Of a stretch of DNA of 42,997 nucleotides, positions 2,360 to 41,071 are shown piece after piece. Each line of letters begins with the position of its first letter. Positions within the stretch are counted from its first letter, which is position 1. Source of the DNA: a virus. The translations under genes and the position numbers were made by a program. Below the pieces are notes generated by a model. That model did not search any database. It saw nothing but the letters and a program-made list of their open reading frames with translations, and had not been told where the DNA came from. Where the stretch lies: positions 1 through 42,997 of the IMG/VR virus record IMGVR_UViG_3300045988_028876; one strand, given 5' to 3'.

Positions 2360-3175
2360 CTAAAACCATCGATAATTTAGTTCGTCATCCAGCATACTCC
2401 ACCGGAAAATCTTGTCGTCTGCCGCAATCAATCCCTCATCTTCTAACTTGAATCGTCGGTCGAAGTCGTGGACGGTTTTCCCAGGCACATATCCGACCGT
2501 TTCAAAAAAGACCTCCCGCTCTCCATCTTCGGTTATGATTTCCCTCTGTTTGGTTATCGAACGACCCGGTTTGAACGTCACCGGGCTGTCCTTGTCCCAT
2601 TTGAGCATCAGCGCCCACAACTCCGGGTAGTTCTTGCGCAGGAGCCGCAATTGGCTTACACCCTGGTTGTGACAAAACCAGCATCCGCCGCGGGTCGCTG
2701 TGGTGTAGATGGGAGACAGCAGGCCGTTGTCCTCGCACCACTGCCGGCAATCGGACTCTGTCCAACCCAGCTCCACCAGCGGGGATTTTTTAGTATCAGA
2801 TAGGCTGTGAAAGCGTGCAGGTTCGTCGGCGGTGATTCCGATGTACTGGATGGCATCTCTCGGGAGCCGTCCCAGGACGTGCTGCTTTAGACGGCTATTA
2901 CACCAGGGGCCTCTCTGATAGGGCCATCCATAGATTTTCCCACCACGCTCTCCGTCGCTCTCGCAGGTCATGTAGAACACGTCCTGATAACAGCGTTTCG
3001 CTCTCCAGTGCTCCACCTCAATGCCCCACCGTGCCTTGATGATGCGGTCTGCCTTGGCCTTAAACTCCACCATCGGCGGCAGGTCGGAAGGGATGGCGTC
3101 CGTAGCCCAAACCTCAGCGTGCACGATGCGGTCAAGGGGCCAGCCCAGTTGCTCTATAGCCCCCAGGCAGGCCAA
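2360..3175 (-). CDS. PAPS reductase-family (PP-loop ATPase-like) protein, N-terminally eroded
   Basis: Motifs IGITADEPARF and RGGCWFCHNQ are typical of phage PAPS-reductase-like proteins. Only a TTG start (AAGGA SD) is available. The degenerate PP-loop LADKDS lies upstream of that start. Confidence 0.75.
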   Translation of the reverse strand: MACLGAIEQLGWPLDRIVHAEVWATDAIPSDLPPMVEFKAKADRIIKARWGIEVEHWRAKRCYQDVFYMTCESDGERGGKIYGWPYQRGPWCNSRLKQHVLGRLPRDAIQYIGITADEPARFHSLSDTKKSPLVELGWTESDCRQWCEDNGLLSPIYTTATRGGCWFCHNQGVSQLRLLRKNYPELWALMLKWDKDSPVTFKPGRSITKQREIITEDGEREVFFETVGYVPGKTVHDFDRRFKLEDEGLIAADDKIFRWSMLDDELNYRWF

Positions 3176-3211
3176 ACTGTCCTTGTCAGCTAACCATAGC
3201 TGAGACTTAAA

Positions 3212-3728
3212 ATGTGCTCAGCCATGATATACGCGCACCCCCTTTGATCTGTATCCACCAACAGGGATTTTGGGCGTAGTGGCAATTTGATTTAAACTCC
3301 AGCCCTTATGTTTTCTGTCATAAAACATGGCCTTTGATATTCCAAATTTATCGCAAAAGGTATCTACCGTATAAAGGTCACCGAGATACAAGAATTTCAA
3401 AACATTTCTTTTGTTTTTTTGCTGCTCTTGAATAGTAACCCATCTGCAATTTTCAGGGGAATATGGTCCGTGTGAATTAACCCTGTCTATTGTTAACCCG
3501 CTCTTATATCCGTTCTTCAATGCCCATTCTCTAAAATTCGCAAAATTATCCCATTCTTCGCATATTTTTACCCCATCCATCCCATACCATCTGTAATCAT
3601 GCGACTTACTATTATTGCACCTTTGACGCATTGATTTCCAAACATTATAAAGTGGAGTTCCTGATCCTCCGTGTTTAATTGGCGCCATTCTTTTCACCTC
3701 CATAACCTCAGAGATAGTATGTGCTCAG
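3212..3728 (-). mobile_element. free-standing homing-endonuclease-like cassette bounded by 10-bp direct repeats
   Basis: ATGTGCTCAG occurs at 3212..3221 and 3719..3728. The interior is AT-rich (about 28-43% GC in the 60-nt stretches I counted) against about 60% in the flanks. Confidence 0.6.
3218..3688 (-). CDS. HNH/AP2-type homing-endonuclease-like DNA-binding protein (156 aa)
   Basis: GGAGGTGA SD 5 nt before ATG 3688. Motifs GTPLYNVWKSMRQRCNN..YRWYG and LTIDRVNSHGPYSPENCRWVT (HNH-like, with Arg where the His is expected). Confidence 0.6.
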   Translation of the reverse strand: MAPIKHGGSGTPLYNVWKSMRQRCNNSKSHDYRWYGMDGVKICEEWDNFANFREWALKNGYKSGLTIDRVNSHGPYSPENCRWVTIQEQQKNKRNVLKFLYLGDLYTVDTFCDKFGISKAMFYDRKHKGWSLNQIATTPKIPVGGYRSKGVRVYHG

Positions 3729-4244: not shown

Positions 4245-5050
4245 TCAGCACCTTCCAATCTGCTCTTTGCGACCTCGAATATCGCAAGGTCGTTTTCCAT
4301 TCCGATGTATTTCCTATCGGTCTGTAAACAAGCTACTCCGATAGACCCGCTCCCCATGCAGCAATCTAGCACTGTGTCTCCTGCGTTTGTGTAAGTAAGT
4401 ACAATCTGTTCGCATAGCCACACCGGCTTTTGCGTTGGATGCAGGCATAACTTTTGTTTGTCGCTCGGCCCATATAAGACATCCCTCGGATATCTGTCTG
4501 TGCTGTCATACCCAGTTTTCGCGTAATCATGATATACTTCCCCCGTCCTACAGTTCCGCTTATGTGCCGCCGTTGAAATTTTCCGTTTGTGTCCGTGAGT
4601 TATCTGTGGATTGTAGGTCGGCGGATGGTCATAAAATATCAGGATGTTTTCGTGAGCTTTCATCGGCATTTTTTTGGCGTTCAGGTGTCCGGTTGCCTGC
4701 GTCTTTTCCCATATCCATTCGTATCGTAGCTCCTGCAGGTTACTTACACCGAGCACCTTGTCAAATGGCGTTTGAGCGAACAGAGCCTTACAGCCGCCGG
4801 GGCGGACTATTCGTTTTGCTTGTTGCCAAAACCGTTCCAAATCAATCGGGGTATCCCACCTGCAGTTTGTGGTCCCGTATGGCAAATCGGTAAAGAGAAG
4901 ATCAACGCTGTTTTCCGGCAGAGCAGGCATAAGGTCAAGGCAGTCGCCGAATAGCAGCACCCCCGCCTCCGTCAGCCGCCGAGCCGCCTCGTGATCGCCC
5001 AACAGGGCTAATTTGATGTCATCCATTGCTTTCTCAGCCTCCGCCAGCAT
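4241..5050 (-). CDS. orphan DNA methyltransferase (N6-adenine/N4-cytosine, beta-class motif order)
   Basis: TDLPYG (DPPY-like motif IV) precedes HPTQKP and DCCMGSGS (FxGxG motif I). No adjacent restriction enzyme gene. The start is uncertain (5050 or 5026). Confidence 0.88.
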   Translation of the reverse strand: MLAEAEKAMDDIKLALLGDHEAARRLTEAGVLLFGDCLDLMPALPENSVDLLFTDLPYGTTNCRWDTPIDLERFWQQAKRIVRPGGCKALFAQTPFDKVLGVSNLQELRYEWIWEKTQATGHLNAKKMPMKAHENILIFYDHPPTYNPQITHGHKRKISTAAHKRNCRTGEVYHDYAKTGYDSTDRYPRDVLYGPSDKQKLCLHPTQKPVWLCEQIVLTYTNAGDTVLDCCMGSGSIGVACLQTDRKYIGMENDLAIFEVAKSRLEGAE

Positions 5051-18710: not shown

Positions 18711-18775
18711 TAAAAAATAAGGAGGTCCGTGGGGAGGGCGGCGACGTGTACCAACCCTGTATCCCCACGTCCTCC
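18711..18775 (-). terminator. intrinsic terminator 2 of a tandem pair (13-bp interrupted stem plus UUAUUUUUU)
   Basis: GGAGGACGUGGGGA...UCCCCACGGACCUCC, followed by TTATTTTTT on the minus strand. Confidence 0.6.
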
Positions 18776-38363: not shown

Positions 38364-38600
38364 ATGAAAGAGCGATTTGAAGAAATGACCCTCGACCAGC
38401 TCGATGCCATCCATGATGTGATGTGCTATCTATACCCTCCTATGGAGGGCATGGATGAGACCGCCGCCCGTCTGTGGCATGACCTTGAGGATGTTCGCAC
38501 CCAAAAGTTTACCGAATACCAATCCAGTGATGAGTATAAGCAGAAGTGCTCCGAGACCGACGAACTGTACAAGTCTCTTTTTAAGGGGGTGTCCCAATGA
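38364..38600 (+). CDS. small strongly acidic protein (78 aa)
   Basis: AAAGGAGG SD. By my count 18 D/E against 9 K/R. ATGA overlap with the next gene. Confidence 0.65.
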   Translation: MKERFEEMTLDQLDAIHDVMCYLYPPMEGMDETAARLWHDLEDVRTQKFTEYQSSDEYKQKCSETDELYKSLFKGVSQ

Positions 38601-39073
38601 CCAACCGCGAAGCTTATGTGTTCGGCTGGGTGTTTGGCCGCCTCAACGCTGGAGCCGAAGAGGACATCGGCGGCGACACCACTCTAGCTTGCCAGCGTCC
38701 ATTTTCCGCCAGCGCCAAGGTAGTCTCGGACGCTCAACGGCTCGGCATCCTCAAAGGCAACCTTAACAATCAGGTGGGCGAGGCCCTGTGCGAGATAGTC
38801 AGCATCGAGCCTGAGATGGACGGCGGCTCCGAGAAGTGCCAGCCTCTGGAGATACAAGGCTCCTGGCAGCTCGGCTATTTTGCAGGCCGGGCCAAGAGGC
38901 CCCTGGCAGGGGAAGCGTTTGATATCTCCGCCGCCCGCCGGGCCAAAAAGCTGACTCAGGCCCAGCTTGCCGACCAGATGGGCGTTGACCAGGCTCTTGT
39001 CTCCCGCTGGGAATCCGGCAAGGTCAGCCCAAACAAAGACAATCTTTCGAGGTTAAAAGAGATCCTTCTTTGA
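38597..39073 (+). CDS. protein with a C-terminal XRE-type HTH (158 aa)
   Basis: C-terminal KKLTQAQLADQMGVDQALVSRWESGKVSP. The N-terminal ~100 aa are uncharacterised. Confidence 0.7.
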   Translation: MTNREAYVFGWVFGRLNAGAEEDIGGDTTLACQRPFSASAKVVSDAQRLGILKGNLNNQVGEALCEIVSIEPEMDGGSEKCQPLEIQGSWQLGYFAGRAKRPLAGEAFDISAARRAKKLTQAQLADQMGVDQALVSRWESGKVSPNKDNLSRLKEILL

Positions 39074-40074: not shown

Positions 40075-40257
40075 TCAAAACTCGCTTTTTGCTATCTTGT
40101 CCCGTTTCTTCATGAGCTTTTGGGATTCTTTTGCTGCACTTCTGTTTGCTTTGCACTGATTGCAGTTGTTCTTGTTTTTACAAAACCAGCACCCGTCCTG
40201 CCCCCACCAGTACCAGTCAGGCATAGAAGGTCTTGGCTTGCGCTTCGCCTTTCCCAT
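40075..40257 (-). CDS. small basic Cys-rich protein (60 aa)
   Basis: GGGGG SD. Sequence MGKAKRKPRPSMPDWYWWGQDGCWFCKNKNNCNQCK... Confidence 0.5.
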   Translation of the reverse strand: MGKAKRKPRPSMPDWYWWGQDGCWFCKNKNNCNQCKANRSAAKESQKLMKKRDKIAKSEF

Positions 40258-40272
40258 GTTGCCCCCAGTCAC

Positions 40273-40732
40273 ACAATTTCGGCAGAGGACGTTAAACTAG
40301 GATAATCCGTCTGCCTATAATGCCTAGTATCACATTTGCGCTCATCAGCTTAAGATTGTCACACCATATTGGCATACCCGTATACAGGCACACATGGCAG
40401 TTTTCAGCGGGTAAGCGCTTTGCGGTCCAGCCACCTAGGATGCAGCGTCGCAATGCCGCCGGGCCGGGACCACCGGGGCAGGTCATAGCTGCCACCGCTT
40501 CCGCCTCCATGACAGGCGGGTGCCATTTCCTTCTCCGGACCCGTTAGGCACTCTTGGGTTGCCCGGTATAGTGTCTTTCCACAGTCATTTGCCGCATGGA
40601 GGGTGCGACCCTCCGGCCCTGATAAGTGGGCTGGTTCGACTGTGCGGCATATAGTGCCCAACCGATTTTCACGGGGCCGCCGGAGCGGAGCCGCTTTTGC
40701 GGGCTGCGGCTTATGTAAAGGAGGCGAGGAAT
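40273..40732. ncRNA. candidate large structured non-coding RNA region (strand unresolved)
   Basis: About 460 nt with no credible ORF in any frame. Many GC helices, for example GGAGGGT-gcg-ACCCTCC at 40599..40615, GGCAG..CTGCC and CCGC-aaaa-GCGG. A consensus TATAAT sits at 40316..40321 on the plus strand. Confidence 0.35.
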
Positions 40733-40772
40733 GAGAGAAAGGGTGTAGAGGCTTGGATGGACCTCTACACCC
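40733..40772 (-). terminator. intrinsic terminator after the XRE gene (11-bp perfect stem)
   Basis: GGGTGTAGAGG-N10-CCTCTACACCC followed by TTTCTCTC on the minus strand. Confidence 0.65.
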
Positions 40773-40843
40773 TATATTGTCGCATGGCATATCTTTTTCG
40801 CCCACCCAAATGGGTGAAGTCTATATGTTTCGGCAGGATACGA

Positions 40844-41071
40844 TTAAGGTTTATTCTCTCTTTCTCCGTCGTCCCAGCAGAAATCGTCCAAGCCGATGTG
40901 ATAGTGGTTTGCGATCTTCTTCAGTTCAGTTAATCTAGGTTCTCTTTCGCCCCGTTCGTACCGTCTCAGAGTGTTTGACCCAAGCCCCATAAGCTCTGAT
41001 TTGATTTGCATGCTAATGACTGGCCTTTCTCTCTCTCGGAGCCTCCGCAGGCGCTTTGCGAACTCACTCAA
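40844..41071 (-). CDS. XRE-family HTH protein (75 aa)
   Basis: TTG start 7 nt after GAGGAGGG. Sequence FAKRLRRLRERERPVISMQIKSELMGLGSNTLRRYERGEREP. Confidence 0.7.
   Translation of the reverse strand: MSEFAKRLRRLRERERPVISMQIKSELMGLGSNTLRRYERGEREPRLTELKKIANHYHIGLDDFCWDDGERENKP

Follow-up and report, generated by a model that had tools for sequence, protein, structure and literature searches.

A predicted gene for an RNA of about 500 nt, modular and rich in structure, belonging to an uncatalogued family, was found in a viral DNA stretch of 42,997 nucleotides (IMG/VR record IMGVR_UViG_3300045988_028876, positions 1 to 42,997; hereafter the window). The non-coding element occupies positions ~40270-40784 on the minus strand, in the packaging region, and its homologues are located in phages and prophages of Oscillospiraceae, beside or among tRNA genes. 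The helices of three of its modules, named A2, B and C, are kept by compensatory changes, including those of a pseudoknot and of a pairing between two loops of 7 nt. The original prediction, made from the letters of the window, had proposed a large structured RNA in the gap 40273-40843 and was borne out by the covarying helices in these three modules, the numerous homologues and the absence of a coding signal. With regard to its role, we favour, with moderate confidence, a stable multi-domain RNA that acts in trans and is made and processed together with the phage tRNAs.

A conserved non-coding stretch with covarying helices

The only long open reading frame (ORF) of the element (40404..40805, minus strand, 133 amino acids) is rich in R, P and G, and neither this frame nor the other internal ORFs matched a family in a Pfam search. 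In the alignment of the core, the variable columns are distributed over the three codon positions as 24, 20 and 19, and 90 of the 99 indels measure 1 or 2 nt (1 nt, 55; 2 nt, 35; 3 nt, 5; 8 nt, 4). Conservation of a frame, three-base periodicity of the substitutions and indels in multiples of three were looked for among the homologues and not found, in agreement with the earlier remark that no frame gives a credible protein. Two smaller candidates were rejected. The first, a small ORF within B starting from the Shine-Dalgarno-like (SD-like) GGAGAAGG and an AUG, has no conserved start: this AUG, the only one preceded by an SD sequence, reads ATG, ACG, GCG, GTG, TTG, TAG or AAG across the homologues, and the next 45 nt are invariant at all codon positions. 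The second, on the opposite strand from AAGGAGG-N-ATG, lacks conservation and is only five codons long in the window. The stretch as a whole is conserved and codes for no protein.

Folding of the minus strand gave -220.2 kcal/mol (z = -3.30), a stability reached by none of 100 dinucleotide shuffles, and the plus strand gave z = -2.57. The GC helices noted in the original prediction are all present in the sequence: an 11-bp perfect hairpin, GGGTGTAGAGG/CCTCTACACCC, at 40741-40772, GGAGGGT-cgc-ACCCTCC within 40590-40649, GGCAG-N7-CTGCC at 40474-40497, GCCGC..GCGGC around CCGC-aaaa-GCGG within 40657-40713, and GGCAGA-N23-TCTGCC at 40281-40328. The R/P/G-rich frame and a TATAAT on the plus strand (40316-40321) were found as well. 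From 5' to 3' on the minus strand, the element comprises the following features.

40776..40784, minus strand: promoter-like element of the extended -10 type, TGcGACAAT, proposed from the hexamers of homologues
40741..40772, minus strand: T0, GC-rich hairpin of 11 bp, with equivalent hairpins in Flavonifractor phage Castelnaud and most loci
40714..40740, minus strand: single-stranded pyrimidine tract with CCUCCUU (40718-40724), a motif of the upstream regions of homologues
40657..40713, minus strand: A1, hairpin cluster GCCGC..GCGGC, CCGC-UCCG-GCGG and CCC..GGG, shared with Dulem virus 33
40590..40649, minus strand: A2, tRNA-shaped three-way junction, from an alignment of 25 distinct sequences
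40473..40588, minus strand: B, pseudoknotted core, from covariation in 40 distinct sequences
40571-40582, minus strand: P1 of B, GUG-GAAAGA-CAC
40535-40566, minus strand: P2/P3 of B
40547-40551 with 40520-40524, minus strand: pseudoknot of B, GUGCC with GGCAC
40501-40519, minus strand: P4 of B, CCGCCU-GUCAUGG-AGGCGG
40474-40497, minus strand: P5 of B, GGCAG-CUAUGAC-CUGCC
40424..40471, minus strand: I, optional insert hairpin GGUCC..GGACC with an inner hairpin, from its presence or absence among loci
40338..40418, minus strand: C, the most widespread domain, from covariation in 20 distinct sequences
40281..40328, minus strand: D, pseudoknot-like 3' part, ACUAGG/CCUAGU interleaved with GGCAGA..UCUGCC, shared among loci

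The minimum free energy fold of the window sequence by itself gives T0, the A2 junction, P4 and P5. Block B, which begins with 5' AUGAC, was matched by model R1 at 40471-40589 (minus strand, 133.7 bits). In its 40 distinct sequences, 95.7% of the cells of P1 to P5, the pseudoknot and the loop-loop pairing are paired and eight pairs are changed on both sides, compared to 38-44% of the cells and one to two doubly changed pairs when the 3' partners were slid by 1-3 columns. The best-supported helix is the pseudoknot, with pair 42/71 occurring as UA (30), CG (8), GC (1) and UG (1), and pair 40/73 as CG (34) and UA (6). P1, the pseudoknot helix and P4 were recovered independently by RNAalifold. Diverged relatives replace the GUG/CAC of P1 by GCUG/CAGC, GCG/CGC or CCCCG/CGGGG around a constant GAAAGA loop, and in some the P4 helix is fully swapped from CCGCCU/AGGCGG to CCGACA/UGUCGG with a constant GUCAU loop. 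The loops of P4 and P5 are complementary over seven of seven bases, and this complementarity is kept in all three variants of the wobble position (G.U, A-U or G-C). Pairing of the 5' UGAC with the P4 loop is possible; in the window type it is probably out-competed by the 7-nt P5 loop. A long-range helix between ACACUAUA in B and UAUGGUGU in C was dropped, as its covariation is not consistent.

Module A2 is closed by an 'acceptor' stem of 7 bp (UGCCGCA/UGCGGCA) and carries two arms, GCCC-loop-GGGC and, with 6 bp, GGAGGG-UCGCA-CCCUCC. Its alignment has 94.7% of the cells paired, against 44-52% with slid partners, and the compensatory pairs are 13/63 (AU to CG), 46/60 (GC to AU) and 47/59 (AU to GC).

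The closing stem of domain C measures 12-13 bp; beyond it come an internal loop that is invariant, an inner helix that covaries and an apical part whose length ranges from 12 to 52 nt. The internal loop has GAAAACU on its 5' side and GUGACAAU(C)UA on its 3' side, of which GAAAACU and GUGACAAU never change. In 20 distinct sequences, 93.0% of the cells are paired and nine of the 18 pairs are doubly changed, with 30-51% paired in the slid controls, and the inner helix shows six pair types at one position. None of 500 shuffles reached any of five measures, a control that is not to be read as a probability, the sequences being fairly close relatives with a limited number of independent events. A comparison of homologous phage regions for covariation, as had been suggested for this gap, revealed compensatory changes in A2, B and C. 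Module D is shared with five loci (L028, L063, L112, L176 and L235), and in L063 it shows the compensatory change of CUAGG/CCUAG to CUCGG/CCGAG.

Homologous loci, shuffled modules and neighbouring tRNAs

The element is conserved in more than 200 phage contigs of IMG/VR, gut phage sequences in which members of the family often sit within tRNA clusters. Of three IMG/VR pattern scans, the first gave 76 contigs and the other two more than 119 each, both of these numbers being lower bounds. Core block B was present in at least ~135 loci among the matches listed, after removal of chance matches, and some 45 of the 60 further loci listed in the third scan look genuine and carry domain C. The homologues were gathered with exact sequence patterns, which biases the collection to conserved motifs, and the phylogeny is shallow, with most sequences sharing 78-95% identity.

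BLAST against isolated phages gave a match to Castelnaud (locus L001), a prophage of Flavonifractor plautii. Its copy is located between a 'transcriptional regulator' gene and the HNH, terS and terL genes, beneath three tiny ORF calls of phanotate. Three GenBank coding sequences annotated as 'hypothetical protein' (WAK79708-WAK79710) overlap the RNA element at 2831-3331 and are probably false gene calls. A match was also obtained with an unannotated stretch of Dulem virus 33, to which A1 shows 85% identity over ~80 nt; A1 is also present in L111, and other loci have a different long hairpin in its position.

No core B was found among 185,579 GTDB species genomes with two core-B patterns; the 26 pattern matches obtained were considered chance matches, in which model R1 finds nothing. 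The pattern of domain C gave true genome matches in Oscillospiraceae only (Pseudoflavonifractor, Muriventricola, Oscillibacter and metagenome-assembled genomes), and B was not found in these genomes. One of them, the chromosome of Muriventricola aceti H5_61 (L235, NZ_JAOQKF010000002.1), carries I, C, D and a downstream ORF nearly identical to those of the window, without P2-P5, and this near-identity points to the host lineage of the window's phage.

In the window, the gap 40273-40843 is flanked by two minus-strand genes, an XRE-type helix-turn-helix gene (40844-41071, Pfam HTH_3) upstream and a small ORF with its true start at 40257 downstream. Further downstream, the same strand carries a gene that probably codes for the small subunit of terminase (HTH_Tnp_1 match only), then those for the large subunit and the portal, and these gene matches confirm the predicted position between the early and packaging modules. 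Two settings were observed among the loci. The element either follows an XRE-type gene, upstream of the small and large terminase genes (window, L001, L003, L005, L150), or lies between the large terminase and portal genes (L013, L016, L064, L105), a variation that speaks against both a cos/pac site and a leader dedicated to one gene.

The small ORF directly after the RNA (40078-40257, minus strand) encodes a very basic, Cys-rich protein of 60 amino acids (MGKAKRKPRPS...CWFCKNKNNCNQCK...) which matches no Pfam family and might be a candidate RNA-binding, zinc-ribbon-like protein. It follows the element in just 10 of 137 loci and in the Muriventricola aceti chromosome, so that it was ruled out as an obligatory partner of the RNA. 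Between the RNA and the terminase genes, a divergent gene for a 158-amino-acid HTH_3 protein (38597-39073, plus strand) stands among the minus-strand genes.

Phages combine the modules in different ways, with true tRNAs placed precisely where one module meets the next. The order A2-B-C is found in Castelnaud; other loci have A2-B-E or tRNA-hairpin-B-E-tRNA. In the order A2, tRNA-Arg, B, C, the tRNA-Arg ends 0 nt before B, and in some loci a tRNA-Met starts 5 nt after module E. The minimal order is A2-P4-P5-C, and P1-I-C-D without P2-P5 occurs in L176 and on the Muriventricola aceti chromosome. Insert I is missing in Castelnaud and many other loci and is present in L005, L013, L018, L064, L176 and L235. 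A second core type, B2, is closed by UGACU/AGUCA. Domain C also occurs with quite different 5' partners, and without B in some phage contigs and Oscillospiraceae genomes. The modules abut without spacers, with P5 running directly into the closing stem of C and A2 lying 1-2 nt from B, and every B-type module has A2 or a tRNA, an odd one included, in front of it.

This odd tRNA of 81 nt, with a 6-nt anticodon loop and a long variable region (called 'tRNA-??? (aa)' by ARAGORN), replaces A2 in L005, L018, L046 and L055, where it lies ~130-210 nt upstream of block B, and genuine tRNAs hold the A2 position in other loci. The resemblance of its anticodon arm to the A2 arm suggests that A2 is probably a decayed tRNA, which retains an acceptor-like stem and two arms and has no D arm, canonical T loop or CCA. 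ARAGORN called no tRNA in the window, and the tRNA model RF00005 gave no match on 40100-41000 at E up to 10. In an Oscillospiraceae metagenome-assembled genome (L232), a tRNA-like gene ~200 nt upstream of C is split by ~75 nt containing a P5-like hairpin, GGCAG-AGUCUAUGGCGAC-CUGCC; the split may reflect an insertion of intron type or a transitional stage in the origin of these modules.

The functional strand, left undecided in the original prediction, is the minus strand. ARAGORN called 72 tRNA genes within 1.2 kb of the core in homologous loci, confirmed by Rfam, and all 72 lie on the strand of the element and none on the opposite strand (54 of the 105 distinct loci have such a tRNA). The G.U pairs in the pseudoknot, P4, P5 and C fit this strand only and become C.A on the other, and promoter-like elements are located upstream.

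In the homologues, NANAAT hexamers (TATAAT, TAAAAT, TAGAAT, GATAAT, GAAAAT, GACAAT) stand in the place of the promoter-like element of the window, the weak ones after TGn, and most loci have such a -10-like hexamer just upstream of the first hairpin. A promoter scan of L064 gave TTGATA-17-TATAAT with TG on the same strand as the element, with 11 of 12 positions matching and 6 nt ahead of the equivalent hairpin. From these positions, the transcription start in the window is predicted at ~40768-40773. The plus-strand TATAAT to which attention had been drawn is on the wrong strand to matter, and the regional promoter scan found two sites with 1.3 expected.

T0 is followed by UUUCUCUCAUU. Its equivalent in Castelnaud has a different sequence (GAGGCGUGGAGGU/ACCUCUGCGUCUC) with G.U pairs on the element's strand, and in most loci it reads GGGAGCG..CGCUCCC. 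T0, judged by its position, most probably forms the 5' end of the transcript, perhaps with a second function as an attenuator. The original prediction took it for a terminator bounding the region, a reading that was abandoned, since the hairpin lies at the 5' end of the element on the minus strand and bounds no 3' end. No terminator was found between D and the next ORF. The pyrimidine tract lies between the 5' hairpin and A1. Of 64 distinct upstream regions, 52 contain CCUCCU or CUCCUUU, in most cases at 33-61 nt ahead of A2; in L064 the tract (4787-4796) reads UCACCUCCUU. CCUCCUU is identical to the anti-Shine-Dalgarno 3' end of 16S rRNA, and the tract could pair with SD sequences.

Relation to known RNAs

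Rfam 15 (4227 families) was searched with the window at the gathering score, with region 40100-41000 at E up to 10, with 20 homologous loci at E up to 1 and with 14 loci at the gathering score. No family matched the element in the window, in these 34 loci or in L064, and otherwise only tRNAs and unrelated phage motifs were detected. The covariance models of ROOL (RF03087) and GOLLD (RF01998) gave no match on the window, on 40100-41000 or on the 14 + 20 loci, and HEARO, raiA, RNase P and the group I/II introns were not listed for the region or the window. An ARAGORN search for transfer-messenger RNA (tmRNA) was negative; A2 is closed on itself without CCA, and no conserved start or resume codon or tag frame was found. 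None of the models that had been named for such a scan, that of tmRNA included, thus matched. The suggested likeness to ROOL and GOLLD holds for the setting, in phages, in or beside tRNA islands and with embedded tRNAs, but not for family membership, as no Rfam 15 model scores.

GOLLD is a large structured RNA of phages and prophages, located in or next to tRNA islands, sometimes with tRNAs in its variable 5' or linker part, and with a more conserved 3' domain (PMC12286853). The layout of the present RNA may be seen as analogous, with tRNAs between modules, a 3' domain C that is the most widespread and variable A2, B, E and I, but the domains themselves are unrelated to those of GOLLD. The present RNA also differs in size (~500 nt against more than 800 nt for GOLLD) and in its helices and pseudoknots, and its host range as found is restricted to Oscillospiraceae. 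ROOL has a mean length of 581 nt, multiple junctions and pseudoknots, and occurs in phages and prophages near tRNAs, its function being unknown (PMC5737381, PMC12286853). The present RNA resembles it in size, in its multiple junctions and pseudoknots and in its occurrence in phages and prophages, with a tRNA nearby in about half of the distinct loci. It is far more modular than ROOL, with whole domains swapped or missing, and contains long invariant stretches, whereas ROOL has few highly conserved nucleotides. Both GOLLD and ROOL were recently found to form RNA-only cages (PMC12286853).

A weak local match to cow-rumen-3 (RF03083) was obtained over P5-I-C (21.6 bits, E = 0.018), including a AAAAACUACC-like segment followed by a hairpin. 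Membership of this family was rejected, as the score is far below the gathering score of 86.7 and was not reproduced in L064 or the 34 other loci, and the resemblance is treated as chance or very remote.

The species 1 and 2 RNAs of phage T4 (rnaC/rnaD) are stable non-tRNA RNAs of ~120-140 nt with a single domain, encoded in the tRNA cluster. Their function is unknown, and they are co-transcribed and co-processed with the phage tRNAs from one precursor. They resemble the present RNA in concept only and are unrelated to it in sequence. Domains with the shape of a tRNA are fused to other functional RNAs in the MALAT1/mascRNA-type handles, in tmRNA and in the bacterial Y RNA YrlA. A2 is likewise tRNA-shaped and could recruit RNase P, RNase Z or other tRNA-binding factors; it differs from such handles and mimics in having no D arm, canonical T loop or CCA, and there is no tmRNA call or conserved tag frame.

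No description of this RNA was found in the literature. Fragments of it may be present among the unnamed entries in a catalogue of 10,006 viral candidate RNAs of 30-151 nt (PMC10690425). In a human-microbiome catalogue, the first 200 of 408 supplementary files contained none of the motifs.

Possible role and competing explanations

The role that we consider the most probable is that of a trans-acting RNA processed alongside the phage tRNAs. Transcription would begin at the T0 hairpin from an extended -10 promoter belonging to the RNA, which would share one precursor with the tRNAs. Enzymes of tRNA processing would trim the RNA, namely RNase P, acting 5' of A2 and of the flanking tRNAs, and the 3' tRNA maturation enzymes, after which it would persist as a compact stable species acting in trans. 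Its working surfaces may be the invariant GAAAGA loop, the GUCAUGG and CUAUGAC loops, the internal loop of C and the CCUCCUU tract, serving either folding and self-assembly or the binding of a host partner of the translation or tRNA machinery. An action in trans, rather than as a leader, is suggested by the differing position of the element, which some phages carry ahead of terS/terL and others between the terL and portal genes. Co-processing is suggested by the tRNA-Arg that ends where B begins, by the tRNA-Met just after E, and by A2 or the odd tRNA that always precedes B.

Two ideas on the activity, both speculative, seem the most likely. The 7-nt loop pair may mediate folding or self-assembly, by analogy with the kissing loops in ROOL and GOLLD particles. 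Alternatively, the tRNA-derived domain and the constant company of tRNAs point to an interaction with the tRNA or translation machinery, or with nucleases that attack tRNAs. If the RNA does act in trans and is co-processed, it would be a third, unrelated kind of large phage RNA of tRNA islands beside GOLLD and ROOL. A bolder version, put forward tentatively and with clearly less confidence, is a third class of ornate RNA in which a tRNA-derived scaffold, A2, is fused to pseudoknotted domains, the complementary 7-nt loops and the invariant internal loop assemble a particle or dock tRNAs or the ribosome, and the phage thereby controls the host's tRNA or translation machinery or its tRNA-targeting defences.

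Several points weigh against an RNA acting in trans. Placed directly behind the putative promoter and followed by a U-rich tail, T0 resembles an attenuator and would fit a regulatory role. With no tRNA and no terminator before the next ORF, the copy in the window might rather be a long leader. It is also conceivable that the modules form several small RNAs instead of a single molecule, and the transcript ends, the promoter and the processing are all deduced from sequence. The sample of homologues is pattern-biased and shallow, with a modest number of independent compensatory events.

The alternative that survives best, although unlikely, is a cis-acting leader of the late operon for packaging and head genes, in which a T0 terminator and a long structured 5' untranslated region would control read-through or translation, by Q-type or put/EAR-type antitermination or by attenuation. 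This would fit the window and the many other loci in which the element stands between a regulator gene of XRE type and the packaging genes, the promoter-like element followed at once by a hairpin with a U-rich tail, and the lack of a terminator between D and the next ORF. The downstream gene varies by locus, though (60-amino-acid ORF, BRO-N, terS, portal, tRNAs), and the second group of phages has the element between terL and portal. The shuffled modules, the embedded true tRNAs and the occurrence of domain C in other contexts of bacterial genomes also speak against a leader, and an antiterminator RNA must precede its terminator, yet T0 precedes the whole element.

Slightly less probable still is an array of independent small RNAs and decayed tRNA genes, the debris of a tRNA island or a set of mobile modules, maybe with little function. 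It would account for modules that occur in many combinations and sometimes alone, for the likeness of A2 to a degenerate tRNA and for the tRNAs that separate modules in some loci. The direct run of P5 into C and the gap of just 1-2 nt between A2 and B argue for one molecule rather than an array, as does the constant position of B-type modules after A2 or a tRNA, and the invariant loops and internal loops, together with the compensatory helix changes across more than 100 distinct loci, argue for selection.

A strongly diverged ROOL or GOLLD that is missed by the Rfam covariance models is very improbable. The ecology is similar (phage tRNA islands, tRNAs in a variable 5' part, a conserved 3' domain, several hundred nucleotides, pseudoknots), but neither RF03087 nor RF01998 matched at the permissive thresholds used for the window region and 20 loci, or at the gathering score in 14 others. 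A DNA-level site (cos/pac, origin or attachment site) or a small protein gene can practically be dismissed: the element adjoins packaging genes and its high G+C content leaves open frames, but the compensatory pairs, G.U included, are strand-specific, the position relative to terS/terL varies, and the frames have an unconserved SD-preceded AUG, no periodicity of three, indels of 1-2 nt and no Pfam match.

GOLLD and ROOL are among the largest bacterial and phage RNAs of unknown function, and both are located in phage tRNA islands. If the trans-acting, co-processed RNA proposed here is indeed a third and unrelated one, a large folded RNA travelling with phage tRNAs would be a recurrent solution and not a curiosity, and comparison of the three RNAs could reveal shared features. 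The family is suited to functional work by its modularity, its natural deletion variants (A2-P4-P5-C only; P1-I-C-D only), its tRNA-derived domain and its short, mutable invariant loops. A cultivable and inducible system is available in prophage Castelnaud of Flavonifractor plautii YL31, a member of the OMM12 mouse consortium, and this host and the modular variants make the question of function directly testable.

Other RNA elements were located in the same and in related phages. A full-length match to RAGATH-31 RNA (RF03101) was found in the window at 18721-18775 on the minus strand (78.7 bits, gathering score 71.8) and is a second, known candidate RNA in this phage. Related phages carry the known candidate RNAs skipping-rope, int-alpA and GP20-b elsewhere in their sequences (L013 5829-5969, L064 2309-2449, L008 7124-7193, L005 3402-3472 and L003 4598-4661).

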